Shown here in pieces: positions 18,190 to 61,701 of a DNA stretch of 64,000 nucleotides (positions are counted from its first letter, which is position 1; each line of letters opens with the position of its first letter). Where the stretch lies: IMG/VR virus record IMGVR_UViG_3300037095_000059. One strand, 5' to 3'. The notes under the pieces are model-generated. The model made no database searches. It was not told where the DNA came from and was given only the letters and a program-made list of their open reading frames with translations. Both the position numbers and the translations under genes were made by a program. Origin of the DNA: a virus.

Positions 18190-18200
18190 AAGGAGAAGTA

Positions 18201-42178: not shown

Positions 42179-42192
42179 TCCGGATAATGGAC
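42178..42192 (+). repeat. dispersed motif, exact
   Basis: gtccggataatggac. Its first G is the G of the upstream TAG stop. AGGAGG and ATG 42203 follow. Confidence 0.9.
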
Positions 42193-44140: not shown

Positions 44141-44175
44141 AAAAAGGCCCTCCGTTTTGGAGGGCCTTAGTGTTT
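44141..44175. terminator. bidirectional rho-independent terminator
   Basis: AAAAA GGCCCTCC gtttt GGAGGGCC TTAGTGTTTG. An 8-bp GC-rich stem has an A-run on one side and a T-rich tract on the other. It sits exactly between the convergent gene arms. Confidence 0.65.
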
Positions 44176-44190: not shown

Positions 44191-44832
44191 TTATTCTTCT
44201 AGTCTGAGCTTCTTCATTTCTTTCGGGTCCTTGTCTGGCATGTTTCCCTCCCCCTTGTATGAGGGAGTATACACCCTGTCCGGTGTTCCGGTATTGGTCC
44301 AGGCGTGTGTTTGTCCCGCGTATTTATCTGCCGCATCTCCGCTAGAAAAGACTCCAAGATGTTCTTTGGTTTTGACGTAGTGTTTCTTGGCCTCCTCGTA
44401 CAAAGCGTCGTTAGCCTCCTTGTCTTTTTCGTCCGGTTTCTTTCCGGAGGAGGTCAAGAACTTACCGTCGGCTATCTGCGGGATCAGGGCGTACCTCGGG
44501 GCGTGGTCGTAATCTTCTTCCGGCCACAGTTCTCCCTTTTCATCGAGGGGGATGGTTGCTGAATAAATACTGCTATAGGAGCCATCCTCGTTCCGAATTC
44601 CAGGACGGTGGTTGACATCAATATTTCCGGACTGAACCATGCCGGGAACAGGCGTTCCTTGAAGCGGCCCCACGTCGTAAACAGGAGGGGGAACCGGCTG
44701 CGGGTTTGGTTTGGTTGTTCCGGGGGTCGGGACTCCGGAGTCCATCACATACCCAGCCGGAAGAGCCGCGTCTAATACATACCCCGGGGGAGGGGTTGGT
44801 TGTCCGGATAATGGACTTGCTGGGCTACCCAT
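44191..44832 (-). CDS. virion-module protein, Pro-rich N-terminus
   Basis: ORF-track ORF. The start overlaps the giant ORF stop (ATGGGTAG). A GNIDVNHRPGIRNEDGS segment is present. No function assigned. Confidence 0.65.
   Translation of the reverse strand: MGSPASPLSGQPTPPPGYVLDAALPAGYVMDSGVPTPGTTKPNPQPVPPPVYDVGPLQGTPVPGMVQSGNIDVNHRPGIRNEDGSYSSIYSATIPLDEKGELWPEEDYDHAPRYALIPQIADGKFLTSSGKKPDEKDKEANDALYEEAKKHYVKTKEHLGVFSSGDAADKYAGQTHAWTNTGTPDRVYTPSYKGEGNMPDKDPKEMKKLRLEE
44802..44816 (+). repeat. dispersed motif, exact
   Basis: gtccggataatggac within codons 6-11 of the - strand CDS 44191..44832 (SPLSGQ). Confidence 0.9.
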
Positions 44833-47800
44833 TTATAGGTTCTCCCGTTTGGCGATCAACCCAATTGTGCCCGTCATTCGAAGCGACCTGGTGTCCTGTT
44901 ATCGGATGAGTTGCCGTGTGAAGATACTGTTGGACGCCCGCGTTAAGATGTGCTGCTTCTTGCTGAACCGCAGGAGGAATAACAGGAGCGGGTGCCGCCG
45001 ATGCTTGCGGGATTCCCCCTGGGTGCATCATGTTCAGAATCCTCTGGAGCACCGGGTCCTTGGCTCTTTCAGAGGGAGTCATGTCCTTCATGGCCTTGGC
45101 TGTGTACCGTTTCATCACCGACTGAGTTAAGGGGATGAGCGCGGTTTTCTCGCTGTTGTTCATTGTATCGAACAGCTTGAAAAACTCAGCAGCGGGCAGC
45201 CTAGATGCTCTCGTGTACAACGAGGCCATCGTGGAGTCCATGCCTTTTGTCTTGGTCAGGTTGAGTTGGATTTTCTTCAGTTCGGACTCTTTGAGTTGGT
45301 CTGTGTTATAAGCCAACTTGACCAACTCCGGCCACGAAGTTTCCCCGGACCTTACCTGATCTTCCAGGTCCATGATTCTCCGGTGCCTGTCCATTTGAGC
45401 CTTGTCTATCGGGCCGTCTTCGTTGTGATTTGCGGCAAGCTCGGCTGCCATCTTCTGTGCAGGAGTAGCGTACACTTGGGCGGTTCCGCCCCCCGCTTTC
45501 CAAACCTGGCCCACGGTTCCAACTTGGGGCCCGGTTCCGGTGACAGCCTGTCCGATAGCCTGTCCAGGGATAGGCATCATGTTGTGGAACACGTCAGCCC
45601 ACAGGTCTTCCGGACCTAGCTTACGCCCGAAGGAGTCGCGCTGCGTCAGTAGTTCTTGTCCGGCATGAATTGTGGGCGACAACCGGCCCTTGATGAAGCC
45701 CACAGGGTCTGTAGCAGCGTGAAGAAGGTCAGTCGGCAACGTCCTCATCCCGAAGATGATTTCCTTGCCTTCCTTGTTCTTGACAGCCAAGCCGAAGGGG
45801 GCTTCCAAGTGCGGACTTCCCGTGGACAAGGTGTTGAGGACTCTTGCGATTCCCCACATTCCCAGGGTCATCATCACGACCTGTTTGCGGCCTATGTTAC
45901 CTTCTTCTCGGTTGAAGAGTCGGGCCCCACTTCTCATTTCCGATTCTAACCAGTCCGGGGCCAGAAGCATTAAGCGGCCCCAGTCCTGCGTAGTTGTGGA
46001 GCGCCCCATCGCTCTCCAATTGATACCGCCAAAACTTTCGTTTGCGTGCAGAGCCGCAGCTTTGGCCACGCGGTCATTGGACCACTCTGGGTGAGACGCT
46101 CGGTACTGGTCAAACAAGTGCTCGCCCGCCGTCGCTTTCATGGCAGGAATGTAACGTTTGAACAAGAAGTCCTGATACCAGTTCATGGAGTTGGCAATTG
46201 TGTTTCCAATTCCTGGAATCCTGCGCAAGGCATCACCCCCCGTGGACAAGCCTTCGGACATCTGTTGTTGGCCCCGGAAGTCCGTTCCAGTGGTGTAGCC
46301 CTGGCGAACCATTGCCAGGAGCTTCGTTTCTGAATGTGGATTAGATGGGTCGATCTTAGCCCCATCCAAAAGGTCAGGTCCGTGGAGAGTAAACGGGTTG
46401 ATCCCAGTCATCACACCACGGAGCCCAATCTGGACCATGTGGAATGGAGACAGAGACAGCAGGACATGCTTAGCCGCAGACCCCGCGCCCAACAACGCTT
46501 TGCCTATGGGGTTTTTGGCGATTCCAGACTCTTCCAAGCCCAGCCTGTTCTTCAGGTACTGAGCAAATTCGGGGTGGGCCTTGATGTCGGCATCAACTAG
46601 GATACCGTGCCCGGCGGAGTCGTTGGTCACAAAGTTCCAGCCGCGCATAGCGTTGTGATCCAGCGTGACGTAGTCCTGCGGGTCCCAGGCATAGACGGGC
46701 TTCTGTGCGCCGTTGAACTCGCGCAGGCCCGAGTAGTCTTTGTTCGCCAGCATGGACTTCAGGTACATGAGGTCGGTCCGAAGTTTATTGTTTCCCATTT
46801 CGTCGTACTGTGCGTTCTTACTCAGAGCCTGCTTTTCCAGACGATCAATTGCCATCCCGATGTTGTCCGGATGAACGTGGGGCGTTATGTCCTTGATGGT
46901 GCCGTCGGCCAGGAAGCGGTCGAAGTACCCCGTCTTCTTCATTTCGTCAATGTTGCTCTGCGCGATGTTGATTTTCTGCACGCGGTCCGGGGAGATGAAT
47001 GTCTTGGGGTCTTCCCCGTCTTGACCAGTTACAACTCTGCCCGATCCCGCGAGAACCACCGCCGGTCGGCCATCGCTTCCCCGGGAGAAATCGTCTCTCA
47101 GGCTACGAATGAACTGCCGGTTGGCTGCGGCCTTGATGATTTCGGCTCTGCCCCTGGCCATGTTGTTCACTATGTCGAACTTCAACTGCTTGGGGGATTT
47201 CAACAGCCCGGTCAAGGTTGAGTCATATACGCGGCGGCGTGCCATCGTTACGTTGGTGGCAAACTTTCCGTTCTTGGCATCAGAGGATATAACTCGACCT
47301 TCCGGGTTGGAGTTATCCCATGTCCGCTGGAAGTAGTCGTCGATGTAGTGTTGCAATATGTCGTTTGTCGAGCCTATTTCGAAGCTGCGGTCGTGCTCGT
47401 TCCTGATGAAGTCCATTGCGGATTTCATCTGGGGGTCAGGCGCGGTGGTTGCCGCTTTCCTATGCACACTCATCACCAAGTCCCGGTATTCCTTGGGCTT
47501 GTCTTTGAAGACGTTATTCTGGATCATGTCGTCGATGTTCGGCGGGAGATGTCCATTATCCGGACTTTCTCTTGAGAACAGCGGCTGACCTTGATGCAGG
47601 ACAGACTCACGCATGGAATCTGTGATGGGGAAGTAGGGAACAGCAGAAGTTTTGACTTCCTTTTGGATATTTAACTTTCCGCCGATTTTTTCTGCGTAGG
47701 CTTCCGATCCAAAATCCCGTACAGCTTCTGCAAAAGGAATCCGGCTATAACGCACTTCATAAGCAACAGCCCGGGCTTGCCCCTCAAGTTGAGTTCCTTC

Positions 47801-50800
47801 TGCTTCCGAAGCTATTTTGTCTAGGTCCGCTGTCGATAGGGTCGGTCCCTCATATATTCTTGTTTTAGACCCGTCAGATACCTTGATCTTCGTCTCCCCA
47901 ACCTTAGCCCCAAACTGTTTTCCAAGTTTGTTGGCAACCTGCGGGGTGATCTGATCGTAGTAGCTTTCGAATCCTTCCTTCCGGGGCATGCTCGCTCCGG
48001 TTGGCTCTGTCTGCATCCGATCCCAGAGTTTCTTGGTGACAGCGTCTACCTTCTCACGACCAGCAATATGCAGGACCCGGTGTACAATTGCTCTCAGGTC
48101 GGCTTGGGACTTTACTTGTCCTCCACTTTTGTTGAGCAATCCCCGGCGCGTAGCTTCGCCTTCTAGATCAACCCCTCCGGCATTTCCGCCGTGCTGATAT
48201 GTTCCAGCAACCGTCCATTTTCCGTCTTCGGTCTTTTCCCAATCGAAGCGTTCCGACCCCCACCGGTTGAAGTGTTCAACTCCCGGGGTCCACGAGATTC
48301 CATCATATCCGTTTTCGGCGGCGTATCGGATCATTCTCTTGAAGAATAATCCGGTCCATTCGTCTGTCTTCTTGAAGGGGGCGTCGGGGACTCCAGAATG
48401 GACAGTCTCTTTGCTGATTTCGTTCAGACGAGCCTGTAGCTCCGGATGAACGTCTCCGGCGTCCGGTCTTGTTGAGTGGGTCCGGTCGTATTCTCGGGGG
48501 TCTAGTTCTCCCGTTTCCGGGTCTATCGCATGAACCTTGACACTCCAAACACGATCCCATCCCTTTCCGTTGGGGTCTGCGGGATGGAAAGAGATTACCT
48601 TGTCTTTTCCTCCGTAGCTGTTTACAATATTTCCTGGCTTGAAGTAGTTCGCAAGTTCTTCGTCGGTTACCGGGTCCTTCAGTCTTTCGCGGAGATCGGA
48701 CGCTTCCTTACGGAGACTCTCAATTCTTGCTGGGTCGAGATTGTACCCCTGTGTCCTTCCTTTCTGGTGCCAATCAGATTGCAGTTCTTCCAGGTGCAGC
48801 AGCTTCTCGCCGTTGGGGCCTGTGCGGTCGTTGAAGCGGACATGGCCTACTACGTTGGGTTCGTCCCAGTGAGCGGAGCGGAAGTCCTCGTTATAATCGA
48901 ATACATTCTTCGATTGCCCGTAGTTTGGAAGCGTCATCAACAACTCTCGGTACGAACCTGGTTCTGCTCCGGGGAGGGTGTATGTGCCGAATTTGGCGGG
49001 GTCAAATTTTTCTCCGGCATCCCACCTGTTTACCGCACTATCAACGACCTCTCTTTGGTCTTCAGAAAGACCACCATAATCTCTTCCATAAAGCTGTCTG
49101 GAAATCCTATCCGGCGGGGGAGTGTTTTCCTGTTTCGTAACCTCTTGTACCTGCAAGTTATTCGCCGCCAGGTAGTCCTTGACTTCTTCCGGACGCACGG
49201 GGGCGCTTCCCTTCTCGCGGAGGAAGTCAGAGAGACCTGTGTATTTTAGCTCGTCCGGTTTTACGCCGTTGTTCTCCAGCATTTTGAGAACGGTGTCGGC
49301 GGGCATGGGTCCTTGCATCCGGCTATCAACTAGCTGGTTGGACTTCAAGTACCAGACGGGAGCGCGGTTATCCTTCTCTTTGGAAAACAGTCCATTATCC
49401 GGACCGAATTCTGTGTCAAATAATGAAGCTCCTGATTTCCGAGCAAGGTGTGAGGCTATCCGCGAGTCTCTGCGGGCGGCTTCGAGTCTACCAGCCGCGT
49501 TAAGAAGTTCAGGACTAGAGCCCGCAGCTTCTCCGGTGGAAGGTTTTCTTGGGACGTAGGTTTCGAGTTTTGTGTCGAGGGCATTGAGGTCTCCTCCAAG
49601 TTTCTTGATTACGCCCCTGATTTCGGGGTTGGTTTTGAGCATGTCCGCAAAGTCAGCAGAGTGTTGGGCCACAAGTTCGGGTGTTAGCAGTCCTTGCTTG
49701 ATAATTTCTTGCGGGGGTATCCAGCGGTCGTTCCCCCAACCAGACAGTTCGGCCAGAGATTTGATGAAGCACCAGATTGCGGCCTGCGCCTGGCGAGGCT
49801 CGACGCCCTCCGCCTTGGCCGCTTCGCGGACCTTGGCAGACATGGCGTCATAAACTGCTGGTTTGTTAATCCGATTCGGGTCGTGATCTCCGAAGACCGC
49901 CATCCAGGTGTCGTTTGTGACCCGGCTTGAATCCTTGCCCAGGTTCTTTGTGAAAGAAGATACCTTGGGGCCGGATAGAGGCTCTCCCTGTAAGGCGTGA
50001 ATAGCGTTGCCCATTCTTGCAGGCAGGTCTACGCCTTGTGTTTCTCCACGACCGGCGAGAACTCTGTAGAGAGAAGCGTTCTTGCTGGCGACCTTCCCGT
50101 CTTTCCAGGTTACGTCCTGGGGGCGGCCCGCCTTGTCCCACTTGGCCCAGAGGTTGAGGGCCATGCGCAGGTTGGCTTGAACCGGCTGAACCGGGGATAG
50201 AGCGGCGGTAAAGTTCAGGAACTTGTCTTTGTCCGCTTTCCCCAGCCACGGAATTCCAGAGTCGATCAGAGCGTCGAAGGCCCGGGTCGATCTTTCATAC
50301 CACAACTGTCCGGCTTTGCCCGCACGAATAGCAGCCGTCCACTCTTCGTGGTCGGGCATGGAGTTGAAGGCGGCGGTGAGCAGGTTCTGCTTTTCGGGTG
50401 TGTCGTGCTTCTGAACTTCCTCTGGGGTAAGGTGGGACTTGATGTCTTCCCACTCTGCGGGTTTTTCTCGGGAAGCCAGTCCGGATAATGGACTGATTGG
50501 TTCTCCGCGAAGAGCAGCTTTTTGAACGGCTTCCCCGCCTTGGTATGAGTCTACCCGTACCCCTTGTCCGGGTTCGTAAGGTCCTTTGTACGTTGGGTCA
50601 TACGCCATGAACACAACGTCGGGATGGCCACCGTTGTACTGCTTCATTTTGTCGTAGTTCCAACCTTCGGGGGCATATGCGTCATTCCACGGAAGACGAG
50701 CCACGACCTTCATTCCCTCCCGAGCGTTTATTGCCGGAAGGTAGGTATCGAATCCGTCGGACCGACGCCCTCCATTTTCAATAGCAACGCGCATCAAATT

Positions 50801-53800
50801 GGCATTAGCTCTTGGGGTATCAGTAGGATGAGAGAACTTCGACACAATAAGGTCTCCATCCAGAGCGATTCCGGTCTTTCCGTCCGGGCTCATAAAGGTT
50901 TTCATTCCTTTATACTCTTCTGGAGAGTAGACAGAAAGCTGCTGATCCGCTCCGGAGGACTCGTGCGCTTTCTTGACTTGGGAAATAGCAGAGTGGAACT
51001 TCTCCGCCGACGTTGGCACTATGCCATAGTCACGGAAAACTTTGACAGGTTCGAAGGATTTGACTACGTTTTGGGCTCTGTACCCGGAGAAGCCTTTTTG
51101 CTGAAGCAGCTTTTCGAGGTTATATTCAATCGGATCGCCATTTTTGCGAGTTAATTTGCGGGCCTGGTCTACAAGACTGAGCGGGTCTTTCGCCCTGTCG
51201 TAGATTTTGTTGTAGTCAAGGTTCGCAAAATACTTCTTGGAGTTTCCCTGGACAGCGGGTTCTCTGTAGGATTCTTCTCCGAAGTACGTTCCTGGAACCT
51301 GTAAACGATCCCGTTCGGCCCCGCGCACACCTGTTCCTGCCAACTCCGGGTTGGTTTCCGTGAAGTCTGGTTTTCTGCTCCAATGGTAGACGCGGCGAAG
51401 GTCCTTGTTTTCGTCCAGTTCCCGGACGCGGGAAGCTAGACCTTGCTGTTTTCCTTTAGTAGGCTCAAATCGAACTTCAGCCTGAGTGCCCTCAGATTCT
51501 GCTGCTTTGGTAGCTTCTTCGTGGGTTGGGAAAGAATCTAGGAGATGGCCTTCCCCGTCGTAGACGTACCATTCTCCTTCAGCACCTTGGCCAGCCCCGC
51601 CTTCCCCTCCTTCTTCCAGGCGTCGTACACTTCCAGCGCCCGTTCCTTGCTCGGCCAACCCACTTGCTCTTGCTTCTGCTGCTTGTCTTTCGGCATAAAT
51701 GTCCTCCACGTGTTGTCTTGCAATTTCGTTGATGCGGGCAAATTTCTCCCGCGCTTGGGGTCCGTGCTTGGCTTCAAGTTCCTTGAAATACTCATCTAGG
51801 AAATTGATTCTCTCTGTTTTTGATGCGCCCGTGTCCACGCCCGCCTGATATTTAGCAGCGGTCTCGGCCACACGAACAACCGGGTTTTGGTCATAATCCA
51901 GCGAATCAAAATATGAATGAGTCACTGTTGGTATTATACCATGTAAACGGTCCCAGGGGGAACCCGGTTCCACTTTAATTTCTCCGCTTGGAAGCCTTGT
52001 GGCCCCGTCTAGGAGGTTGTATACCTCCCCGTTTTGGGAGAGCCATCTTTGCTCGGCGTGTTGAGCTTCTTCTTGTGCAACTAGAATTGAAAACTCAGGA
52101 TTCTCCCCCGGGGTTTTGAGGACAGATGTAGGTCCGGCGAGTTGACGGGCCTTGGAAATCAACTGTCCGATTGAACTCTCTGGATTGAAACGACTTAGGA
52201 GGATGTCCGCTTCCCTCGGAGAGTAGTTTACGCCCGTGCCCGGAGCTTGAGCAATCGTTTGAAAGTCGCCGTAATCTTCTGGACTGAGCCAAACAACAGG
52301 CCGACCATCTGAGCCTACACGCACTTCTCCCGAAGAGGTAGTAGCAACGGACTTGGTTCCTGCTCTCGGCGGGGCTTCGTTGTCGGCTAGAGGGGTTCCC
52401 AGCGGGGCCGGTATGGGCTGGTACTCTCCACCACCTTGGGCTTCAACCAAAACGTTATGTAGTACCCGCGCCTTTTCCGGGTCGGTTTCTGTCGCTATAC
52501 GGGTTTGGCATTCGGCGAGGCGCTCGGTATTGAAGGCTTTATCCTCTTTGGACAAACCGAGAACTGGGTGTGCTTTTCGGAGACCTAGCAGGTCGAAGGC
52601 TGTGTTGTACTTGTTGACAGCGTCCTGCTCAGCGACCGCGTGGGCGGCCTCCCTGTCCTTGTTGACTCTCTCTATTGCCAACCAGCGGTCGGACAGCCTG
52701 GGAACGTCTGTGGAGCCTAGCAGGGGGTTAAACAACTCGCCCGCCGAGCGCAAAGCGTGCGGGGCCCCCAAAGCTCCCATAGCCCCGGAGGCGAACATTT
52801 CTGTTCCATATTCCCAAGCGTGATCGGCGTCCCCTTCTTTCAGGGCGTCGAAGAACCGGGGCGACATCTGAGCCGCTGTTTCCAACTGTTGGTAGGTGAA
52901 TCCCCAGTTCATCACAGTGTTCGCCGTGTCGGCGGCCTTGGTCAGGGCCCCAAAAGACACATCGGGCGCTGCTTTGTGCAGAATCTGGAAGGCTCCTCTT
53001 TGGAGAAGGTTTCCTCCCAGAAGGTCCTTGGTCACGTCCAGTTTTTTATCGGACAGTATGGCAGTTGCTTTTTTCCAATTGTCTACGTTGTACCCGGCGT
53101 CACGAACCGCGTCAGCCAGGGGGAGGAAACCGGACTTGGCTTTGGCTACCGTATCGCCCGTATCCGACAGAGCCTTCAGTTCGTCGGTGGAAAACCCGGG
53201 CATCTTTGTGTTCGCCGTGGCGATAGCAGACCTTTCCGCTTCGGAAAGTGTTCCTTCCTTTAGGGCAGTCCTCTGTGCTTCGCTCAAGCCTACTTCAGAC
53301 AGGTTCTTCTGAAGTTCTTCCGAGGCTAGTTCTGCGTCCCTGTTGATGGGGAAGGTTAGAGCCCGGGCTCGTTCCAACAAACCCAGGTCGTGTCCGCCCG
53401 CTTTCAGGGCACCAGAGATGACCGGCTCAATATCGGGCATACTCTTGGCGGTCTTCAGCGCGATTTTTGACGCACTTATGGCGTCGGCGATCTGAGCGGC
53501 GGTAAATTCCCCAGACTCTTTGAGCGCAGTTTCGCCCGCTCCGGCGATAAATCCTCCGGAGCCGAAAGTTGCGGCAGCTAGAGCCAGCGAAAGTGGACTC
53601 GTGAGACCCGCCGCGATGTGCTCCACACCGCGCCCAAACCCGCCCATTCCCAAATCTTCGGGAAGACCAAAGACAGAGGAGTCGAGCAGGGGGGTGTTCG
53701 CCCAATCCCAAGCGCGAGAGTACCAGCTTTGACTTGGGTCTTGGTACAAGTGCTGAGGAGGAGTGGCGGGGCCAACAGATTGTTGTCCATTACCCGGACT

Positions 53801-53956
53801 AGAAGCGGAAGAACCCCCAAATAATAGGCCAAACGCAGAAGACCCAGAACCCCCAACAGCCGGGGCCGCTGCGCCAACGGCGGCCTCTCCTGTCGAAGGA
53901 GTCTGGGTTTCTTTGTTTTCCGAAGAGAAAAGCAGGGAGTAAGCTGAATCGGGCAT
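44825..53956 (-). CDS. giant multidomain virion protein (3,043 aa), polyvalent / ejection-protein-like
   Basis: A single uninterrupted ORF with coding-like composition throughout. Gly/Ala/Ser-rich N-terminus, hydrophobic segments near the C-terminus, and a position inside the structural arm. Confidence 0.85.
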   Translation of the reverse strand: MPDSAYSLLFSSENKETQTPSTGEAAVGAAAPAVGGSGSSAFGLLFGGSSASSPGNGQQSVGPATPPQHLYQDPSQSWYSRAWDWANTPLLDSSVFGLPEDLGMGGFGRGVEHIAAGLTSPLSLALAAATFGSGGFIAGAGETALKESGEFTAAQIADAISASKIALKTAKSMPDIEPVISGALKAGGHDLGLLERARALTFPINRDAELASEELQKNLSEVGLSEAQRTALKEGTLSEAERSAIATANTKMPGFSTDELKALSDTGDTVAKAKSGFLPLADAVRDAGYNVDNWKKATAILSDKKLDVTKDLLGGNLLQRGAFQILHKAAPDVSFGALTKAADTANTVMNWGFTYQQLETAAQMSPRFFDALKEGDADHAWEYGTEMFASGAMGALGAPHALRSAGELFNPLLGSTDVPRLSDRWLAIERVNKDREAAHAVAEQDAVNKYNTAFDLLGLRKAHPVLGLSKEDKAFNTERLAECQTRIATETDPEKARVLHNVLVEAQGGGEYQPIPAPLGTPLADNEAPPRAGTKSVATTSSGEVRVGSDGRPVVWLSPEDYGDFQTIAQAPGTGVNYSPREADILLSRFNPESSIGQLISKARQLAGPTSVLKTPGENPEFSILVAQEEAQHAEQRWLSQNGEVYNLLDGATRLPSGEIKVEPGSPWDRLHGIIPTVTHSYFDSLDYDQNPVVRVAETAAKYQAGVDTGASKTERINFLDEYFKELEAKHGPQAREKFARINEIARQHVEDIYAERQAAEARASGLAEQGTGAGSVRRLEEGGEGGAGQGAEGEWYVYDGEGHLLDSFPTHEEATKAAESEGTQAEVRFEPTKGKQQGLASRVRELDENKDLRRVYHWSRKPDFTETNPELAGTGVRGAERDRLQVPGTYFGEESYREPAVQGNSKKYFANLDYNKIYDRAKDPLSLVDQARKLTRKNGDPIEYNLEKLLQQKGFSGYRAQNVVKSFEPVKVFRDYGIVPTSAEKFHSAISQVKKAHESSGADQQLSVYSPEEYKGMKTFMSPDGKTGIALDGDLIVSKFSHPTDTPRANANLMRVAIENGGRRSDGFDTYLPAINAREGMKVVARLPWNDAYAPEGWNYDKMKQYNGGHPDVVFMAYDPTYKGPYEPGQGVRVDSYQGGEAVQKAALRGEPISPLSGLASREKPAEWEDIKSHLTPEEVQKHDTPEKQNLLTAAFNSMPDHEEWTAAIRAGKAGQLWYERSTRAFDALIDSGIPWLGKADKDKFLNFTAALSPVQPVQANLRMALNLWAKWDKAGRPQDVTWKDGKVASKNASLYRVLAGRGETQGVDLPARMGNAIHALQGEPLSGPKVSSFTKNLGKDSSRVTNDTWMAVFGDHDPNRINKPAVYDAMSAKVREAAKAEGVEPRQAQAAIWCFIKSLAELSGWGNDRWIPPQEIIKQGLLTPELVAQHSADFADMLKTNPEIRGVIKKLGGDLNALDTKLETYVPRKPSTGEAAGSSPELLNAAGRLEAARRDSRIASHLARKSGASLFDTEFGPDNGLFSKEKDNRAPVWYLKSNQLVDSRMQGPMPADTVLKMLENNGVKPDELKYTGLSDFLREKGSAPVRPEEVKDYLAANNLQVQEVTKQENTPPPDRISRQLYGRDYGGLSEDQREVVDSAVNRWDAGEKFDPAKFGTYTLPGAEPGSYRELLMTLPNYGQSKNVFDYNEDFRSAHWDEPNVVGHVRFNDRTGPNGEKLLHLEELQSDWHQKGRTQGYNLDPARIESLRKEASDLRERLKDPVTDEELANYFKPGNIVNSYGGKDKVISFHPADPNGKGWDRVWSVKVHAIDPETGELDPREYDRTHSTRPDAGDVHPELQARLNEISKETVHSGVPDAPFKKTDEWTGLFFKRMIRYAAENGYDGISWTPGVEHFNRWGSERFDWEKTEDGKWTVAGTYQHGGNAGGVDLEGEATRRGLLNKSGGQVKSQADLRAIVHRVLHIAGREKVDAVTKKLWDRMQTEPTGASMPRKEGFESYYDQITPQVANKLGKQFGAKVGETKIKVSDGSKTRIYEGPTLSTADLDKIASEAEGTQLEGQARAVAYEVRYSRIPFAEAVRDFGSEAYAEKIGGKLNIQKEVKTSAVPYFPITDSMRESVLHQGQPLFSRESPDNGHLPPNIDDMIQNNVFKDKPKEYRDLVMSVHRKAATTAPDPQMKSAMDFIRNEHDRSFEIGSTNDILQHYIDDYFQRTWDNSNPEGRVISSDAKNGKFATNVTMARRRVYDSTLTGLLKSPKQLKFDIVNNMARGRAEIIKAAANRQFIRSLRDDFSRGSDGRPAVVLAGSGRVVTGQDGEDPKTFISPDRVQKINIAQSNIDEMKKTGYFDRFLADGTIKDITPHVHPDNIGMAIDRLEKQALSKNAQYDEMGNNKLRTDLMYLKSMLANKDYSGLREFNGAQKPVYAWDPQDYVTLDHNAMRGWNFVTNDSAGHGILVDADIKAHPEFAQYLKNRLGLEESGIAKNPIGKALLGAGSAAKHVLLSLSPFHMVQIGLRGVMTGINPFTLHGPDLLDGAKIDPSNPHSETKLLAMVRQGYTTGTDFRGQQQMSEGLSTGGDALRRIPGIGNTIANSMNWYQDFLFKRYIPAMKATAGEHLFDQYRASHPEWSNDRVAKAAALHANESFGGINWRAMGRSTTTQDWGRLMLLAPDWLESEMRSGARLFNREEGNIGRKQVVMMTLGMWGIARVLNTLSTGSPHLEAPFGLAVKNKEGKEIIFGMRTLPTDLLHAATDPVGFIKGRLSPTIHAGQELLTQRDSFGRKLGPEDLWADVFHNMMPIPGQAIGQAVTGTGPQVGTVGQVWKAGGGTAQVYATPAQKMAAELAANHNEDGPIDKAQMDRHRRIMDLEDQVRSGETSWPELVKLAYNTDQLKESELKKIQLNLTKTKGMDSTMASLYTRASRLPAAEFFKLFDTMNNSEKTALIPLTQSVMKRYTAKAMKDMTPSERAKDPVLQRILNMMHPGGIPQASAAPAPVIPPAVQQEAAHLNAGVQQYLHTATHPITGHQVASNDGHNWVDRQTGEPING
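47551..47565 (-). repeat. dispersed motif, exact (reverse on + strand)
   Basis: gtccattatccggac inside the giant ORF (codes SPDNGH on the - strand). Confidence 0.9.
49390..49404 (-). repeat. dispersed motif, exact (reverse on + strand)
   Basis: gtccattatccggac inside the giant ORF (GPDNGL). Confidence 0.9.
50479..50493 (+). repeat. dispersed motif, exact
   Basis: gtccggataatggac inside the giant ORF (SPLSGL on the - strand). Confidence 0.9.
53785..53799 (-). repeat. dispersed motif, exact (reverse on + strand)
   Basis: gtccattacccggac inside the giant ORF N-terminus (SPGNGQ). Confidence 0.9.
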
Positions 53957-53968
53957 GTTGTCCTATAT

Positions 53969-55789
53969 TTACCGAGAGGCGCTGGTTGTTACGTTCGAAG
54001 AATTCAAATTGGGATAGGGAGACATTACGCGGCCATCGGTTGGGCGGGGGGCAACAGTGATCCCCTTCTCCTGCGCCTGTTGAATTACTTTCCGAAGAGC
54101 AGCTTCTCGGGACATGGGGGTCTTAGCTATCAATTGATCGGCGGCTTCCGTGGCTCTTATCCAAGGCATCGGAGTTTTGGAATCCCGCAGCGCGGCTTGT
54201 TGGTCCTCTGGTTTGAGATTAGAAGACGTGATATACCTGTAAGCGTCCGGGGTTCCTGGCTGAATTTTATCATCCTGTTGCATCTTACCCAAGAGCAGGG
54301 ATGAAGGCGCATCGGGCGGAGGTGGCGGGTTAACTATGTCTTCTTTCTTCTTCTTGGTTCCGGGATGTAGCTCGTGGTACTTGTCCACGACAGCTTTCCA
54401 ACCGTCGTCCATTTGCGTCTGAAGAGCTTTGTAATTTGGGTCTGTTGGTTGCAATTCTTTCTGTTGCTTCAAAAGCTCGTCGTTCTGTGCCTTAGTTAGG
54501 TCGAACAAGTCCTTGTATTCCCTCTCCCCCTGCTCTCTGCTTGCGTTAGTATTCGCACGGTTCATATTTTGTTGCGCTCTAAATTGATTTCCCAACCCAA
54601 TAACTCGGTCAAGAGACATGTTGACAGTGCCTTCGGGATTCGGGAACACCGTTTCTCCCGCGAGTTTGTTTACCTGCGCCTTGTCCATAGGGAACAACTT
54701 AGTCATAGAATCTACCGGAACGTCGTAAATTCGAACGTTGGTATTCGCGGTCTTGTCCATTGGCTTGCCCGTGGTTTGATCCGTCCAAGCGTTTTGGTCT
54801 GGGTCCCATTTCTCTTGGTCCCCAGTAATCGTGTCCACGAAAATGCGATGTGAGTTTTGTTCTGTCGGATCATTATCCGGGTGTAGCGCAGCCCCTTTAG
54901 TCTCCACGACTTTGTCTCGAAGAGCATAGAAATTCATAATCGGGGGCAAGTCTTTAGGGTCTTGGGCCCCCCGCGCCTCTAGCGTGTCCATTATGACTCT
55001 TGTCGAATCATTGATCTTGTCAATACGACCCTGATCCTCAAAGTCCATTGTGTGCTGGGACTCTATGATGTTGTGCTGATACATTTTTATTTGGGCTTGT
55101 GACACCAGCTTTTGTTGGTAAGCAGTATCAGCCTTCTGTGCATCTTCAGTCGCCTGCCGCTGGTTCTGCCATTGTTCTTGTGCTTGGTCGTGGGCCCGCG
55201 CTCTTGCTTTGTCTTGCATTTCGGTTGCGGCGTTCCAGCCCATACCAGCACCAGCAACACCGTGCCCCGCTCCGGAGGCGGCCCCGGCCAAAACCCCGGC
55301 CAGGAGATTGCGGAAGAAGAAGCCAGGAGAGTTTTGTTTTGGCTGATTGACCGGAGCCCCTGTAGGATTTCCATCCGCGTCTACCGGCTGAACATATTGG
55401 TCGCTCTTGCCTTCGATGGCTTGCATGATCTTTGAATGAAGAAAACCGTGCTGCACGACGGGGTCCGATAGAGTGGTATGAAACGGCTTTCCAACATCGG
55501 ACATCGGCACAAACCCGACGGTCTTCCGAACAGCAGGAGCCGCCCCCTCAGCAGGGGTTCCGCCTGCCCTCGAAGCGGGGGCCGTCGTGGTTTGAGCCGG
55601 AGCTTGAGTAGGCGCAGGAGTTCCCGGGGTCGTGTTCGCCGCCGCAGCGGGGGGAACAGAAGACACGGTAGGCGGCACCTGGGCTGCTGCGGCGTCCCCG
55701 TTAGGCGACGGGGAAAAGCCCGACATATTGGAAGTTGCTGCGGGGGAGGGGGTTGCCATTGCGTTTGGGGAGTCGGTTGGTCCTGGCAT
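53969..55789 (-). CDS. virion-module protein (606 aa), Ala/Pro/Thr-rich N-terminus
   Basis: ORF-track ORF, 12 nt upstream of the giant ORF. No recognisable catalytic motif. Confidence 0.7.
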   Translation of the reverse strand: MPGPTDSPNAMATPSPAATSNMSGFSPSPNGDAAAAQVPPTVSSVPPAAAANTTPGTPAPTQAPAQTTTAPASRAGGTPAEGAAPAVRKTVGFVPMSDVGKPFHTTLSDPVVQHGFLHSKIMQAIEGKSDQYVQPVDADGNPTGAPVNQPKQNSPGFFFRNLLAGVLAGAASGAGHGVAGAGMGWNAATEMQDKARARAHDQAQEQWQNQRQATEDAQKADTAYQQKLVSQAQIKMYQHNIIESQHTMDFEDQGRIDKINDSTRVIMDTLEARGAQDPKDLPPIMNFYALRDKVVETKGAALHPDNDPTEQNSHRIFVDTITGDQEKWDPDQNAWTDQTTGKPMDKTANTNVRIYDVPVDSMTKLFPMDKAQVNKLAGETVFPNPEGTVNMSLDRVIGLGNQFRAQQNMNRANTNASREQGEREYKDLFDLTKAQNDELLKQQKELQPTDPNYKALQTQMDDGWKAVVDKYHELHPGTKKKKEDIVNPPPPPDAPSSLLLGKMQQDDKIQPGTPDAYRYITSSNLKPEDQQAALRDSKTPMPWIRATEAADQLIAKTPMSREAALRKVIQQAQEKGITVAPRPTDGRVMSPYPNLNSSNVTTSASR

Positions 55790-57764: not shown

Positions 57765-58133
57765 CTACGGCATCCTTGAGAGTAAGATGTTGATGCTGTC
57801 GCTTAAACGAGAAAACCCGTCTCGTAGGTCTTCTCGCAAGCCGTATAAAGCGTCGTTGGTCTTGTCCAGCTTATCGTTGGTCTTTTCCTGCTCGGCTTGA
57901 ATGTGCGCTAAATGGTTGTCTTTGATTTGGACAAGGTCGCCGCTGGCGGTATCAAGCTTATCCCCGTATTTTTCAAACTTACGGGCGACAGAATACAGCC
58001 GCTGAAGAAATAGCAGGAGCGCAGCCCAGCCCGCAACATACTGCCAGTTTTGAGAGAGCCACACACCGGGGTTCCAAGGAGAATTAAACATTTGTCGGCC
58101 TAAAGCAAGGGATGAGTCTCTAACGTAGTCCAT
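57765..58133 (-). CDS. protein with N-terminal TM segment and coiled coil
   Basis: The start codon is the ATG of the motif copy at 58128. WQYVAGWAALLLFL is a TM-like segment. Confidence 0.55.
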   Translation of the reverse strand: MDYVRDSSLALGRQMFNSPWNPGVWLSQNWQYVAGWAALLLFLQRLYSVARKFEKYGDKLDTASGDLVQIKDNHLAHIQAEQEKTNDKLDKTNDALYGLREDLRDGFSRLSDSINILLSRMP

Positions 58134-58142
58134 TATCCGGAC
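58128..58142 (-). repeat. dispersed motif, exact (forward relative to - strand genes)
   Basis: The - strand reads TAGTCCGGATAATGGAC. TAG is the stop of CDS 58142..58645. ATG is the start of CDS 57765..58133. Confidence 0.9.
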
Positions 58143-58645
58143 TAATTTACTGCAATAATGCTGAAAGTCCCCCCGGCGGTTGCGGGGTGTGTCACGGTAA
58201 TCTGCCCGTTGTTGGACTTCCCCGAAATATATACACCCGTCATGGCAGCGGCTGTCGCGTTGGTCGGGGTGAGCGTTACCGAACTGTTGGAAGTCACCCC
58301 CACGATTGTGACTATGTCCGAAGTTGAAGCTGTAGTAGTTAGCGTGCCAGTTAAAGACTTAGCCGGAGCGAGTGCCGGGGCTAACGTCGGAACAACAGCA
58401 GCGGGACTAGCAGTTAAAGCAGCGGCGGGGGTAAGCCTGTACTGCGGAATTTGCCCTCCGGTCTGATATTGACGAAGGCCATCAGGCGTTGAAGCCGTGG
58501 GCATGATCGGCAAGGGGCAGCGCAGAATCGGGCTCACTCCCGAGGTGGGCAAAGGAGGATGTGGTAGACTCCGGGGGGGAATTGGTCCTGCCCCCACAGC
58601 ACCGGAGCGTGGTTCGGAATCGAGTCTGGAGGCTATGCTTGGCAT
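58142..58645 (-). CDS. Thr/Ala/Pro-rich virion-module protein
   Basis: TAATG junction with the upstream 1,018-aa gene. An alternative internal start is at 58504. Confidence 0.5.
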   Translation of the reverse strand: MPSIASRLDSEPRSGAVGAGPIPPRSLPHPPLPTSGVSPILRCPLPIMPTASTPDGLRQYQTGGQIPQYRLTPAAALTASPAAVVPTLAPALAPAKSLTGTLTTTASTSDIVTIVGVTSNSSVTLTPTNATAAAMTGVYISGKSNNGQITVTHPATAGGTFSIIAVN

Positions 58646-61600
58646 TACAATTCCTGTTCCCAGTCCCCGAACAAGGACAAGCTAAGTAGCTCATTCTTAA
58701 CCACATCAGACCCAAAATTGACTTGTACCTGAAGGTGACGGCAGAGCGCGGGTTCTTCAGTTTGAGACAGCCAGAATCTTTGTGCTTCTACCGAGAGACT
58801 GGGAGACAACTGCGGGGGGTCTGTTGTGTAGACCGTCAGGGGTTCGAAATACCCGGAGGACACAGGAGCTATCTCGTCCAACTGTACAGCCAGAGTAAGG
58901 GGGGTTCCGACCTTGACCGAGTCCGTGGTGAAAAATGCGGTGTGTGCAGTTTGGCCGGGCTGTGCCAAAACCAAACTGCCCAATATGGCCCAGGCCGGGT
59001 AAGGAGCCCCGTCGTCCTCGTAAACAGCGGAATCCCGCTTCAGAATGGGTCCGCCTGCGGCTGGGGGGCCTATCAGAAGGGCATGAACCCCAGAAGAAGT
59101 CTCGACGGACTGCACCGCCGAAAAACCGGAAACGATTTGAGCTTTAGGGCTCCACACAGTTCCGGTCTCGGGCGAGGGGGTGGGACACATCCTCCACCAC
59201 GTATCGGCATAATCGGAGACGTACAGACCTTTGTCCGCCGACCCCGAAACGTGCCAAGTCAACTGAGTTTGCAGAGCGGTAAAGGTTGAGGTCGGGAACT
59301 GATCTCCAATTGGAAAGCCGATTTCGGACAGACCCGAACTGGGGTCCAGGGTTAAAATCTGATTGTCCGAGGAATACAGGAACACGATGCTTCCGTTGAC
59401 GGCAAAAGCGTCGTAGGAAGACAGCCCGATCCCGGTCATAAATGGAGTAGAGAAAAAGGAGCTAGACGAAGTCCCAAGCCCCTGAATGAGGTAGATGTCT
59501 GCTGTTGTGAAGACATACAAACCACTCGTGGTGGGGAACATCCGAATTACTGTGTCGGGGAAGACAAAGACATTGGCCGGAGGCCAAGCTTCATTTCCGC
59601 TCCCAACCAAAGCATCAGGACCGGCGGAGAAATAAACAGAGGTATTGACCGCGCCCCAGATTCTTCCCAAGTGATAAACCAAGGCGGATATTCCAACAGG
59701 CGGAGGGTCGTTCGAGTTGTCTACCGGAGCTTCAATAAGTTCGTCTAGGTTCGTGTCCGCTGTTGTGTCCGTGTAAATCCAGGTTTTTCCCCCGCCGGGG
59801 TTTGGAATTTCATCCAAGTAAAAGAGAGTGGAACCCCCTTGAACTGTGCGCCAAATGTAGATTTCATTAACCTGCGGGTCGGCTGATCCTAAACCCTGCA
59901 CCACGGCGAGGTTTCCAGCAGATACAACTATCGGAGCACTTTGAGGATCAGAAGTGCTGACTGTGTCCGTCAAAGTGTTGACGTAGCTGAAGGCATATAT
60001 CCACGCGCCCGTGTTGGCGGCTGTATACGGTCCGGTGTTTAGCCAAGTTTGCGTGTTATCATAAGTATAAGCTCCTGTGGTTGTGCTCCATCCTCCGGTA
60101 GGAACTGCCCCCGCTCCAGTTTCTCCGAACGCTTGTACTTGCTGTAAATTTCCGTTGGAGTCAAGAATCTGTGTAGCCAAACTTAGATTTTGACTAGCTC
60201 CCGGCCAGGTGGAAGAGGAAGCTCCCCGGTTAGTCCAGGACACCCCCGTGGTCTCGGTTACGGTTGTGCCGAGCCCATTAGTCCACTGCGGAGCCGAAGT
60301 CCCAGTTGTTCCCGCAACAGTGCATTGGAAAACACCCTCGGCGCTAACAAGCTGTTGGACATTGACTGTGGTGTAGGAGTAGTGGCCCGGGATCGACCCA
60401 TTAGCCGGAATCCATGTTGTTACAGTTTGCGGGACAGTGATGTAATAAAAGATGAGAGCTTCTATTACGTCCCCAACTGTGTAGGGAGTTGCGGCGACCC
60501 AAGCGGGGGTGCCAAGGCAAGTCCATTGTGCTGGGGTGGCTGGGGACCCGTGGTTGTCAATAGTAACGTGTCCTGTGTGTGTGTCCCAAGTAGGAGCCGA
60601 AGTCCCAGTTGTTCCGGCAGAAGTTAGCTGAAACAGATAGAGATTGCTCCCGACCGTGACTTCAATAACGAACGACGGAGCGTACCATGTGTTCTGTGCC
60701 CAGGATGAAGACAACGGAGCGGGAGCCTGTGTTACGAGAGGCGCGGAAACCGGAGTTGCTATTCCCCAATTCTCGGTCTGAAGCCCCGCGTTTTCCCACT
60801 GAGCCCCGCCATCTTGTGTTATTGCTCCAAACGTAGTGGCCCAGGTGGGTTGAGATGGTCCGGCTCCGCTCACTCCTGTTCCTGTGGTGGCGGTTCCGGT
60901 TTCTGCACGAGTACTTTGCGTCAGGGCGGAAGCGAATTGGACCTGTTGTCCGTTCACAACAGAAGTAACAGTTTGAGTAGTGCCGTTGAGAGCGGGAACC
61001 GAGGTTAGCCCGGTCAAATATAGCTTTGTACCAACAGGAATGGACAACTGAGTCGAAGGATCGAAAAACAGCGTGGCCGTGCCCGACCCAATCGAAATGT
61101 TGGTGATGGTCGCTGTCTGGCTGCCAATAACAACTTGTAGGTATCCGTTCGAGTCTACAATGAAGTTGCCTTGGTCATAGGAAGTCGAAGCCGTCCAGGA
61201 CAGCAGGCTTCCGACAATCTTTTGCACATCCACGCCGTCCGAAAAATACAGCGTGTTGCCCACACTCAGGAACGAGGATTTTCCAGCCCCCGCAGATTTA
61301 GTAAAGACCGGAGTTGGGCTCGCGTTTCCCGAGCCTGCGGGCGGAACATCGTAGACAGCATTCGCCGTATCCGCCAGAACTTTTATCTTCTCGGTATTGG
61401 AATTGAATAAGTGCCAGGAGTACCAGCGGTCAACGGCGGGGAAGGTGTCGGGAGTTCCTGTCTGATAGGGAGACGATCCTGGGCGACGGACAAGAGTTAG
61501 CTTGGTGCTGATCTCGGTGTTTAGGCCGTCGATCAGACATTCGGTTCTCTCGCCATAGAACTCAGCCTCAATATGCGCGGCGTTAGAACGAAGTGGGTTT

Positions 61601-61701
61601 CTTTGAGTTACGATACCGTCATAGAAGGAGTTGTTCCAGAGAACTCCGAACTTCGGCGGGCGGCTAGGCTGTGATCCCTTTTTCGCTAACTCGTTTGGCA
61701 C
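58645..61701 (-). CDS. large tail / host-recognition structural protein (1,018 aa)
   Basis: GTG start. Thr/Gly/Ser/Trp-rich, beta-rich sequence typical of tail or baseplate proteins. No motif copy inside. Confidence 0.7.
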   Translation of the reverse strand: MPNELAKKGSQPSRPPKFGVLWNNSFYDGIVTQRNPLRSNAAHIEAEFYGERTECLIDGLNTEISTKLTLVRRPGSSPYQTGTPDTFPAVDRWYSWHLFNSNTEKIKVLADTANAVYDVPPAGSGNASPTPVFTKSAGAGKSSFLSVGNTLYFSDGVDVQKIVGSLLSWTASTSYDQGNFIVDSNGYLQVVIGSQTATITNISIGSGTATLFFDPSTQLSIPVGTKLYLTGLTSVPALNGTTQTVTSVVNGQQVQFASALTQSTRAETGTATTGTGVSGAGPSQPTWATTFGAITQDGGAQWENAGLQTENWGIATPVSAPLVTQAPAPLSSSWAQNTWYAPSFVIEVTVGSNLYLFQLTSAGTTGTSAPTWDTHTGHVTIDNHGSPATPAQWTCLGTPAWVAATPYTVGDVIEALIFYYITVPQTVTTWIPANGSIPGHYSYTTVNVQQLVSAEGVFQCTVAGTTGTSAPQWTNGLGTTVTETTGVSWTNRGASSSTWPGASQNLSLATQILDSNGNLQQVQAFGETGAGAVPTGGWSTTTGAYTYDNTQTWLNTGPYTAANTGAWIYAFSYVNTLTDTVSTSDPQSAPIVVSAGNLAVVQGLGSADPQVNEIYIWRTVQGGSTLFYLDEIPNPGGGKTWIYTDTTADTNLDELIEAPVDNSNDPPPVGISALVYHLGRIWGAVNTSVYFSAGPDALVGSGNEAWPPANVFVFPDTVIRMFPTTSGLYVFTTADIYLIQGLGTSSSSFFSTPFMTGIGLSSYDAFAVNGSIVFLYSSDNQILTLDPSSGLSEIGFPIGDQFPTSTFTALQTQLTWHVSGSADKGLYVSDYADTWWRMCPTPSPETGTVWSPKAQIVSGFSAVQSVETSSGVHALLIGPPAAGGPILKRDSAVYEDDGAPYPAWAILGSLVLAQPGQTAHTAFFTTDSVKVGTPLTLAVQLDEIAPVSSGYFEPLTVYTTDPPQLSPSLSVEAQRFWLSQTEEPALCRHLQVQVNFGSDVVKNELLSLSLFGDWEQEL

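Follow-up and report, generated by a model that had tools for sequence, protein, structure and literature searches.

How does a phage come to carry a single gene for a protein of 3,043 amino acids (aa), and what could such a protein be doing? The question is raised by one open reading frame (ORF), here called the giant, in the 64,000 nucleotides of viral DNA recorded as IMGVR_UViG_3300037095_000059 in IMG/VR, a stretch that is referred to in its full length as the window. Its source is an uncultured soil podophage, probably a temperate one. Giant polyvalent proteins, which phages and conjugative elements encode, have since 2017 been predicted to act as cocktails of injected effectors (Iyer, Burroughs, Anand, de Souza and Aravind, 2017; PMC5512222). 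With moderate confidence, the giant can be read as a polyvalent internal-virion effector protein that is built on a new scaffold and resembles ejection proteins in its position, its packaging and ejection being suggested by synteny.

Is the ORF real in the first place? An earlier note on this DNA, made by eye, had described a single ORF of 3,043 aa at 44825-53956 covering about 14% of the window, and these coordinates proved exact, with an ATG start on the minus strand. An artefact of assembly or frameshifting that merged several genes could be imagined from the fact that the 15-nucleotide motif found at the junctions of the giant (see below) contains TAATG and marks genuine gene boundaries elsewhere. 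However, four contigs, independent in sample and assembler, carry a call for the identical 3,043-aa protein (JGI 3300054973, SRR11568270, SRR23247701), the frame is kept through the same junctions in 16 relatives of 1,696-3,118 aa at 48-65% identity, and chance cannot give 3,043 stop-free sense codons. Because the same protein recurs on four contigs and has full-length relatives at such identities, a frameshift or chimera is very unlikely and the giant is a real gene; the notion of several merged genes deserves practically no credence.

How is the protein built? Module borders were taken from BLAST and hidden Markov model comparison with the relatives, as the ends of high-scoring segment pairs (HSPs). 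At least seven modules are delimited by homology in the giant, disparate enzymatic activities being weakly documented for this protein. The features of the gene are as follows.

44825..53956, minus strand: the giant ORF, 3,043 aa; ATG at 53954-53956, stop TAG at 44825-44827; 14.3% of the window
53786..53956, minus strand: Gly/Ala/Ser-rich low-complexity leader, aa 1-57, ending at the in-frame motif copy S-P-G-N-G-Q
52412..53785, minus strand: N1, aa ~58-515, the N-terminal scaffold half; present in minimal and giant relatives and recognisable in remote members
53534..53608, minus strand: conserved glycine-zipper-like hydrophobic segment LTSPLSLALAAATFGSGGFIAGAG, aa 117-141; Kyte-Doolittle 1.49, the most hydrophobic stretch of the giant
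51572..52402, minus strand: N2, aa ~519-795, the first module of cargo or extension; missing in the minimal relatives and unmatched by any family
50972..51403, minus strand: ART-PolyVal-like module (VYHWS ... GTYFG), aa ~852-995, from hhalign
50501..50971, minus strand: module 2, aa ~996-1152, possibly GNAT-like, judged by eye
49403..50482, minus strand: DUF7178 module, aa ~1159-1518; Pfam PF23802 at aa 1212-1399, and phrog_3842
47564..49390, minus strand: the core cassette, aa ~1523-2131, a two-lobed domain of ~610 aa
44828..47551, minus strand: C-region, aa 2136-3043, the C-terminal scaffold half
45002..46699, minus strand: the most widely conserved C-domain, aa ~2420-2985, always C-terminal

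It is the small relatives that make sense of this layout. A profile search with the N-region brought up proteins of only 1,275-1,384 aa (P0065, P0066, P0067, P0070, P0072, P0073, P0075 and P0076), in which N1 (query positions ~20-515) abuts the C-region (~2130-2977), and one of them, P0065, occupies the syntenic slot of the giant. Since these minimal relatives join N1 directly to the C-region, the giant amounts to a scaffold of ~1,380 aa with ~1,600 aa of cargo inserted at one point. The cargo is swappable, its content and order varying between closely related proteins: P0006, P0010, P0015 and P0016 lack the core or have something else in its place, the DUF7178 module stands ahead of the ART-like module in P0016, and N2 is fused straight to the core in P0011 and P0012.

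Several by-eye impressions of the protein can now be placed on this map. The Gly/Ala/Ser-rich N-terminus is evident, these residues making up 43% of aa 1-200. The segments that had been picked out as separate modules were all found, at aa 856, 888, 1029, 1062, 1720 and 2693, and they fall in different homology-defined modules. The hydrophobic, membrane-like stretch seen near the C-terminus, VVMMTLGMWGIARVL (aa 2693), does exist but is moderately hydrophobic only (Kyte-Doolittle 1.27 over 19 aa), and in the model of the C-region it forms part of a long helix with a predicted local distance difference test score (pLDDT) of ~95. A candidate membrane-insertion element would be the segment at aa 117-141.

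The scaffold defines a family of its own. At E<=1e-3, an exhaustive profile search with the C-region retrieved the representatives of 2,407 clusters, of which 788 reached E<=1e-30, clusters being counted at 50% identity. In every case the C-domain stands at the C-terminus; the proteins span 950-5,300 aa and most often measure ~1,200-1,700 aa, and the N1 motifs, including the Gly-zipper segment, are kept in remote members. No sequence match to the C-domain or scaffold was found in Pfam, PHROG, NCBIfam or PDB (phmmer, hmmsearch), and no PHROG matches more than two of the 34 family members scanned. The AlphaFold2 model of the C-region, built on a 57-sequence alignment, is mostly helical (pLDDT 84.2, predicted template modelling score 0.72) and represents a confident novel predicted fold. 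That the C-region might be a divergent tail of the PLxRFG/tail-700 or LPD38 kind was excluded by NCBIfam and by hhalign with shallow and deep profiles (probability <1%). Searches of cultured phages gave no nucleotide match and, for the C-region, no tblastn match; the family probably resides in soil phages, including relatives of Acidobacteriota phages. The cargo recognised in 18 large members comprises DUF7178 (8 members), ART-PolyVal (4), DUF3293 (4), radical SAM (2) and ddrB-ParB (1), and many members of 1.2-1.7 kaa carry an ART-PolyVal domain between N1 and C.

What does the giant itself carry? Family searches with the whole protein returned only DUF7178 from Pfam, phrog_3842 and two weak matches from PHROGs, and nothing from NCBIfam or the PDB sequences. 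The ART-like module aligns with bona fide ART-PolyVal domains at an hhalign probability of 90% (E 1.4e-6) over 41 columns, which cover strands 1-2 only (H858, Y891), and it has no Pfam match even at E<5. The ART-PolyVal match of the relative P0001 was considered as the counterpart of giant aa 852-985 and rejected, as it lies in a different insert (P0001 aa 1617-1747). Module 2 bears the signature ...IVSVF...GGRRLDAFDT.LP.lY...GF..vaR, and its profile gave only spurious matches to PDB sequences. Together with DUF7178 it recurs in proteins of 800-1,100 aa, in the reverse order to that in the giant (P0051-P0059; in P0053 at aa 263-571 and 697-858), which hints that the two form a functional pair outside giants as well.

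The core links the giant to other polyvalent proteins. It is common to more than 30 giants that carry ART-PolyVal, LPD38, LPD22, ddrB-ParB, InPase, zeta toxin, SLT, SNF2-like and RadC domains, the Pfam domains among them including PF18760, PF18857, PF18834 and PF18763. Its conserved residues are H1696, H1705, R1707, E1724, Q1726, S1727, D1728, Y2000 and D2001. The model of the core (pLDDT 76.6) matches 27 BFVD models of giant uncultured-phage proteins, with E down to 1.6e-26, several of them named ART-PolyVal-like, LPD or LT_GEWL. Among cultured phages, tblastn with the core matched only 4-5. Lobe 1 matches the 954-aa gp34 of the T7-like Pelagibacter podophage HTVC028P (L008), encoded in a block of tubular B, internal protein A, gp35, gp34, 'internal virion protein' and tail fibre, and also the 4,012-aa 'lysin' of cyanophages of Nostoc and Microcystis, such as that of Nostoc phage Nsp-JY18 (L009, 29420-41458). 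For Dolichospermum phage Dfl-JY45 the match, to one of its proteins, extends over more of the core, and several of the core-matching podophages have an 'acetyltransferase' gene in the same block. The claim of a modular, polyvalent protein is well supported by the core shared with more than 30 polyvalent giants, by the BFVD fold matches, and by a scaffold family that carries ART-PolyVal, ddrB-ParB, radical SAM and DUF7178.

Whether such a protein would be packaged and ejected has to be read from its neighbourhood. The minus-strand genes around the giant, with the tail-module proteins first, are listed here.

61800..62894, minus strand: 364-aa protein, 31% identical to Tunturi 3 gp12, a 'structural protein'
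58645..61701, minus strand: tail-module protein of 1,018 aa; identity to Tunturi 3 gp19 39.5%, and a weak match of aa 565-743 to a 'phage stabilization protein'
53969..55789, minus strand: 606-aa ORF directly upstream of the giant, with an Ala/Pro/Thr-rich N-terminus and no Cys
44191..44832, minus strand: 213-aa ORF ATGGGTAG, downstream of the giant and overlapping its end by 8 nucleotides
44144-44168, both strands: terminator-like GC-rich hairpin between the convergent arms

Tunturi 3 is a 97.6-kb podovirus of Acidobacteriota (Tunturiibacter) from tundra soil (PMC11924767). This Acidobacteriota phage is the only cultured relative at the level of the tail genes, and it has no homologue of the C-region of the giant; the host can be guessed solely from this link and from the soil origin of the relatives. 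In the window the genes follow each other in the order 364, 1018, 167, 122, 128, 159, 237, 131, 606 and 3043 aa, and the succession of 364, 1018, small ORFs, 237, 131, ~520-600 and giant is kept in four related contigs. Homologues of the giant, the 131-aa and the 237-aa genes occur in all four, those of the 364- and 1,018-aa genes wherever the fetched locus extends that far, and the 364-, 1018-, 237- and 131-aa proteins share 43-67% identity across these contigs. The assignment to a virion arm is supported by the homologues in the structural module of Tunturi 3 and by the gene order kept in the four relatives. As regards position, it was correct that the giant directly follows a 606-aa Ala/Pro-rich ORF, but the arm does not end with it, since the 213-aa ORF precedes the terminator-like hairpin. 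That ORF, which has no family match, is 57% identical to a 128-aa gene (L010:9605-9991) lying immediately upstream of the minimal scaffold gene in L010, and is a small partner gene that switches sides relative to the scaffold gene.

The 606-aa protein contains a Gly-zipper-like segment, LLAGVLAGAASGAGHGVAGAGMGW, which resembles aa 117-141 of the giant in character, and it evolves fast, being 25-26% identical to the syntenic 516-aa and 539-aa genes and without a BLAST match to the 599-aa and 554-aa ones. By its size and position only, it is a candidate gp15-like ejection protein. The ejection-type reading of the giant likewise rests on position and on analogy with T7 gp14-16, the virion RNA polymerase (vRNAP) of N4 and DEV, JC1 gp69 and HTVC028P gp34. 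On this analogy, the giant would be a late product, taken into the head among the internal proteins, and would be expelled via the short tail before or with the DNA, alongside the 606-aa protein and at least one of the small upstream proteins. The scaffold would then perform the job of an ejection protein, N1 and C together corresponding to gp16 and the 606-aa protein to gp15; the Gly-zipper of N1 may insert into the membrane, and the cargo modules would modify host targets in the first minutes of infection.

Could the giant instead stay outside the injected set, as an external tail component (a fibre, a needle or a hub extension with enzymatic domains) or as a late protein that acts in the producing cell and never enters the virion? 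The neighbourhood of tail genes, whose Tunturi 3 homologues are annotated as tail or structural, would suit such a role, as would the lack of membrane-spanning helices and of a fold match to ejection proteins. On the other hand, no beta-helix, collagen, Ig-like or receptor-binding-type signatures were found, and the scaffold is predicted to be mostly helical. The cargo of the family (ART-PolyVal, DdrB-ParB, radical SAM) acts on intracellular targets, lobe 1 of the core occurs in the internal-protein block of a T7-like pelagiphage, and the giant has only 2 Cys in its 3,043 aa. An external or non-virion role is therefore considered quite unlikely.

Several results weigh against the giant being an ejected effector protein, and they are best taken together. 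At the level of the scaffold, no strong transmembrane helix is predicted in the giant, and a Foldseek search of the PDB, which holds the solved T7 ejection proteins, found no fold match for the C-region model (best E 0.2). At the level of the locus, no head gene (terminase, portal or capsid) could be recognised in the window, and the term 'virion arm' rests on two tail-module homologues and synteny for that reason; the head genes probably lie outside the window, because the contigs of relatives reach 93-108 kb. At the level of the cargo, the alignment of the ART-like module spans its 41 columns only and does not include the acidic residue of strand 5, so that catalytic activity is weakly founded there, and module 2 is possibly GNAT-like on the strength of a C-terminal signature read by eye only, a thin basis for catalysis. 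The core model has no significant match in the PDB and no RNA polymerase fold match, the only fold signal outside its own family being a weak similarity to GNAT proteins at E >= 0.02 (E >= 0.026 in the PDB). Where inspection by eye had seen no sign of an RNA polymerase, a transglycosylase or a peptidase, the Pfam, PHROG, NCBIfam and PDB searches found none either. Further, the position of the motif at module joints may reflect no more than that the Pro/Gly peptides it produces are tolerated only in linkers or near termini, where it also lies in other proteins of the window. Pfam, PHROG and NCBIfam also gave no match to a peptidase, SLT/lysozyme, methylase, helicase or MuF family in the giant, and HExxH or HExxxH is found neither in it nor in most of its close relatives. 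Overall, the enzymatic identity of the cargo in this particular giant is weakly indicated by its sequence.

If the cargo is swappable, what happens at the joints? The 15-nucleotide motif GTCCGGATAATGGAC has 43 copies in the window at <=2 mismatches, against 0.11 expected, and 15 of them are exact; the motif, also written GTCCGGNTAATGGAC, is bounded by 4-bp inverted ends and contains TAATG. The 'four exact motif copies' ascribed to the giant by the earlier note exist at the DNA level, where GTCCGGATAATGGAC occurs four times, but three of them lie inside the ORF and one just past its stop, and there is no 4-fold exact peptide: no exact peptide of at least 5 aa is repeated four times in the giant. 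The copies at the giant, and examples from elsewhere in the window, are these.

53785..53799, minus strand: motif copy GTCCGGGTAATGGAC, 1 mismatch, read P54-G-N-G
50479..50493, plus strand (antisense to the gene): exact copy, read P1156-L-S-G, at the module 2/DUF7178 junction
49390..49404, minus strand: exact copy, read P1519-D-N-G, at the DUF7178/core junction
47551..47565, minus strand: exact copy, read P2132-D-N-G, at the core/C-region junction
44802..44816, plus strand: exact copy just past the stop of the giant, within the 213-aa ORF, whose aa 7-10 it encodes as P-L-S-G
7762-7776, 10762-10776, 13926-13940, 24272-24286, 42178-42192, 58128-58142, 61718-61732: examples of copies elsewhere

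The in-frame copies at aa 54, 1156, 1519 and 2132 lie within a few residues of junctions defined by BLAST HSP ends (query positions 1153, 1518-1522 and 2126-2136). By a rough estimate, the chance that three exact internal copies would all fall on junctions is ~2e-5 (~8 junctions, windows of +/-5 aa, 3,043 aa). The core is flanked by two exact direct repeats of the motif 613 codons apart, a copy stands exactly at the N1|C joint of a minimal protein (L010 aa 529), and the giant ends in ...P-I-N-G-stop, within a degenerate copy that provides the ATG of the following ORF. Cassette borders, both here and in related genomes, coincide with in-frame motif copies encoding P-x-N-G. The seventh base of the motif is variable and genome-specific in the relatives (giving PNNG, PVNG or PDNG), and it changes in step at the junctions within one protein and in the intergenic copies of that genome; it follows that the constraint acts on the DNA and not on the peptide.

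The motif is by no means confined to the giant. It is present in ~45 IMG/VR contigs and absent from the examined stretches of Tunturi 3, HTVC028P and Nsp-JY18. In the plus arm of the window (1-44 kb), the copies favour the sense strand by 22:11 and mostly stand in short gaps just upstream of a Shine-Dalgarno sequence plus ATG; some supply a stop codon (as in the integrase gene) or a start codon through TAATG. The flanks of the motif are not conserved. Copies also occur inside other ORFs (19117-19131, 38431-38445, 34012-34026, 31609-31623 and 37249-37263), where they read S-P-D-N-G-Q in sense and (S/C/G)-P-L-x-G in antisense. These lie near protein termini or after a recognised Pfam domain, for example at aa 336 of 460 in the RecT-like ORF (18111-19493), at aa 259 of 267 in the endonuclease VII and at aa 6 in the 213-aa ORF, which suggests that copies in other proteins mark or tolerate linkers too.

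Two accounts of the motif have to be set against each other. In the first, the motif may mediate the in-frame gain, loss and swapping of cassettes. It would be a dedicated connector throughout the clade, providing stop and start signals between genes and, within the ejected scaffold, an in-frame P-x-N-G docking site for effector cassettes that each start with G-L-F-S-R-E. Exchange could proceed by short-homology or nuclease-driven recombination, genes for RecT, PD-(D/E)XK and abundant HNH, GIY-YIG and endonuclease VII proteins being present in these genomes. This proposal, which is tentative and rather unlikely, would mean an integron-like diversification of the protein payload injected by phages, in a protein family of ~2,400 clusters. 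In the second account, the motif is a regulatory or translational element of gene junctions that has nothing to do with cassette exchange, is kept within ORFs only where a Pro/Gly-rich peptide (S-P-x-N-G or S-P-L-x-G) does no harm, and leaves the shuffling to ordinary illegitimate or homologous recombination. The placement of most plus-arm copies, in sense orientation ahead of a Shine-Dalgarno sequence and ATG or contributing stop and start codons, argues for such an element, as do the lack of conservation in the flanks and the location of copies in other ORFs near termini or at plausible domain joints. In the same direction points the fact that the junctions of the giant at aa ~795, ~850 and ~985 carry no motif. 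Against such an element stands that the presence and absence of cassettes break exactly at motif copies, the core lying between two direct copies and the minimal N1|C joint having one. The variant of the motif is moreover homogenised within each genome, the copies inside the giant included, and the window encodes RecT-family and PD-(D/E)XK proteins able to use short homologies. A mere gene-junction element is a serious contender, somewhat short of an even chance. A shufflon-like inversion at the inverted pair of copies at 49390 and 50479 was considered unlikely, as no long opposite-strand ORF exists there.

A second, peptide-level signal accompanies the joints. The linker G/P-L-[FA]-S-[RK]-[EV] has 4 copies in the giant against 0.05 expected, placed where the ART-like, DUF7178 and core modules begin and where the core ends; cargo cassettes tend to start with G-L-[FA]-S-[RK]-E. 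This peptide, with or without P-x-N-G, could be a proteolytic site, and the giant a polyprotein that a protease of the phage or the host cleaves into separate effectors, either ahead of packaging or once it is delivered. The excess and location of the linkers fit such a scheme, the peptide is kept in relatives even where no 15-nucleotide motif is adjacent, and processing of polyvalent proteins has been proposed (Iyer et al., 2017; PMC5512222). However, no protease domain and no HExxH or HExxxH was found in the giant, the vRNAP of N4 is packaged unprocessed (PMC5512222), and the linker can equally be explained as a recombination scar or a plain flexible joint. Processing at the linkers is accordingly regarded as rather improbable.

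The rest of the window gives the setting of the polyvalent protein proposed here. The plus arm encodes a tyrosine integrase, a RecT-family protein, a UvrD-like helicase, a PD-(D/E)XK nuclease, a primase-helicase, a clamp-loader-like ATPase, an endonuclease VII and a DUF1643 protein, and is the replication and recombination arm of a phage with a temperate signature. The tyrosine integrase lies at 6659-7771 (plus strand), and a 172-aa protein at 36401-36919 (plus strand) has weak matches to sigma-70 region 4 according to the annotation precomputed for this contig; the pair suggests a temperate lifestyle and a control of transcription encoded by the phage. The 492-aa ORF at 40041-41519 (plus strand) was examined as a possible terminase and ruled out, being an SbcD-like exonuclease. 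It is 41.5% identical to the 'DNA repair exonuclease' of Tunturi 5, a jumbo phage of Tunturiibacter, and ~1,260 phage records hold SbcD-like exonucleases or metallophosphoesterases that it matches, yet it has no Pfam match at E<=0.01. In the minus arm, none of the 12 ORFs scanned beside the giant matched a Pfam, PHROG or NCBIfam family, and phmmer against the PDB found nothing for the 1,018-aa and 364-aa proteins. The virion arms of the relatives contain, within them or at their end, free-standing, reverse-oriented nuclease genes (endonuclease VII plus helix-turn-helix, and GIY-YIG) and one 328-aa ORF, in places that differ from genome to genome (L007:7128-8078, L010:1201-1911, L010:6829-7815, L001:19116-19805, L006:10826-11587 and L010:14109-14990, all on the minus strand), and HNH genes are found in the opposite arm. 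It is possible that these nuclease genes drive local recombination in the relatives.

What could be gained from this locus? It shows one giant as the expansion of a compact scaffold of ~1,380 aa in the slot of podophage ejection proteins, and it opens a large uncharted family of ~2,400 clusters. The family offers a comparative series, from the scaffold alone through the scaffold with an ART domain to the scaffold with five modules, which separates the needs of packaging and ejection from the payload. Cassette joints at a genome-wide motif provide a testable route to the diversification of that payload. Further, DUF7178, the 610-aa core and module 2 could be considered candidate anti-defence or host-takeover domains.

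How, finally, does this system compare with those already described? As to the motif, the stoperators of Cluster A phages are a comparable dispersed motif. The start-associated sequences of Cluster K mycobacteriophages (PMC3203893) are likewise a short asymmetric motif with dozens of copies, mostly in short intergenic gaps by start codons, and in the known dispersed motifs the orientation is biased with transcription in the early arm, as it is here. Unlike these, the present motif has a different sequence, overlaps stop and start in TAATG, and has in-frame copies at the domain junctions of a giant gene.

The ejection proteins of podophages are the nearest functional analogy. They are encoded by three consecutive genes and recognised by size and synteny rather than by sequence, with gp15-like proteins of 431-982 aa that diverge fast and a gp16 of 1,318 aa (PMC8954989). 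In N4 and DEV, a protein of ~3,400-3,500 aa (the gp50-type vRNAP) is one of the three ejection proteins, namely the third (PMC11445570, PMC13434306). Like T7 gp14, gp15 and gp16, the giant is encoded downstream of what, going by homology to Tunturi 3 genes and the weak 'stabilization protein' match, would be tail genes, after small proteins and one of ~600 aa. Its minimal scaffold of ~1,380 aa is similar in size to gp16, it carries extra functional modules as the vRNAP of N4 does, and its upstream partner evolves fast, as gp15-like proteins do. Unlike the T7 proteins and the N4 vRNAP, with which it has no sequence match, the giant lacks a transglycosylase or RNA polymerase domain, and its C-region has no fold match to them. 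The N-terminal lytic transglycosylase of gp16-like proteins is phage-specific rather than universal, and the N4-like vRNAP has its T7-like single-subunit polymerase module mid-protein.

Among giants of other podophages, JC1 gp69 (4,515 aa), a DarB-like protein of a Bcep22-like podophage, has its gene towards the end of the virion module, and mass spectrometry detected the protein in virions (PMC9144972). The two phages share much of this setting, each being a podophage of at least about 60 kb with a recombinase or integrase, and with a giant near the end of the virion module after a virion protein of ~510 aa in the case of JC1. Unlike gp69, to which it has no detectable homology, the present giant has no DarB-type methylase or helicase; the N6-adenine methyltransferase and helicase that characterise P1 DarB have no family match in it. 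Searches of the phage collection by tblastn with the core or the C-region gave no Bcep22-like (Lessievirus) or Lastavirus record. Another class is formed by the PLxRFG or 'tail-700' giants (NCBIfam NF032893), such as the 495-kDa protein of Klebsiella Lastavirus podophages (PMC9505181). The giant and P0001 have no match to NF032893 (P0024 matches at 1e-224 and P0028 at 3e-80), and no PLxRFG motif occurs in the giant. The PLxRFG proteins P0024, P0025, P0028 and P0039 share the ~610-aa core, and they have the same overall plan, in which variable modules precede a long, conserved tail at the C-terminus.

In its likely way of working the giant resembles the polyvalent proteins, and in its position a third ejection protein. 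Unlike the polyvalent proteins, it has no LPD or ART-PolyVal family of Pfam at threshold (only DUF7178), no MuF and no zincin, and its joints carry a genome-wide motif; a zincin-like metallopeptidase is found in ~36% of polyvalent proteins and is not obligatory (PMC5512222). The N1...C scaffold and the ~610-aa core have no Pfam or PHROG match, a comparison with the LPD set of PMC5512222 not having been made. What is shared is a very large multi-module protein encoded beside late or virion genes, the domain network of the ~610-aa core, and a scaffold family with ART-PolyVal and ddrB-ParB cargo. The adjacency of ART and GNAT domains described for polyvalent proteins (PMC5512222) also has a parallel in the giant, where an ART-like module is followed by a possibly GNAT-like one. 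In its genomic context and its domain network, the giant agrees with the polyvalent proteins. What it adds to them is a scaffold family (N1...C), a giant that is a gp16-sized protein expanded by insertion, and junctions that are marked by a genome-wide motif.

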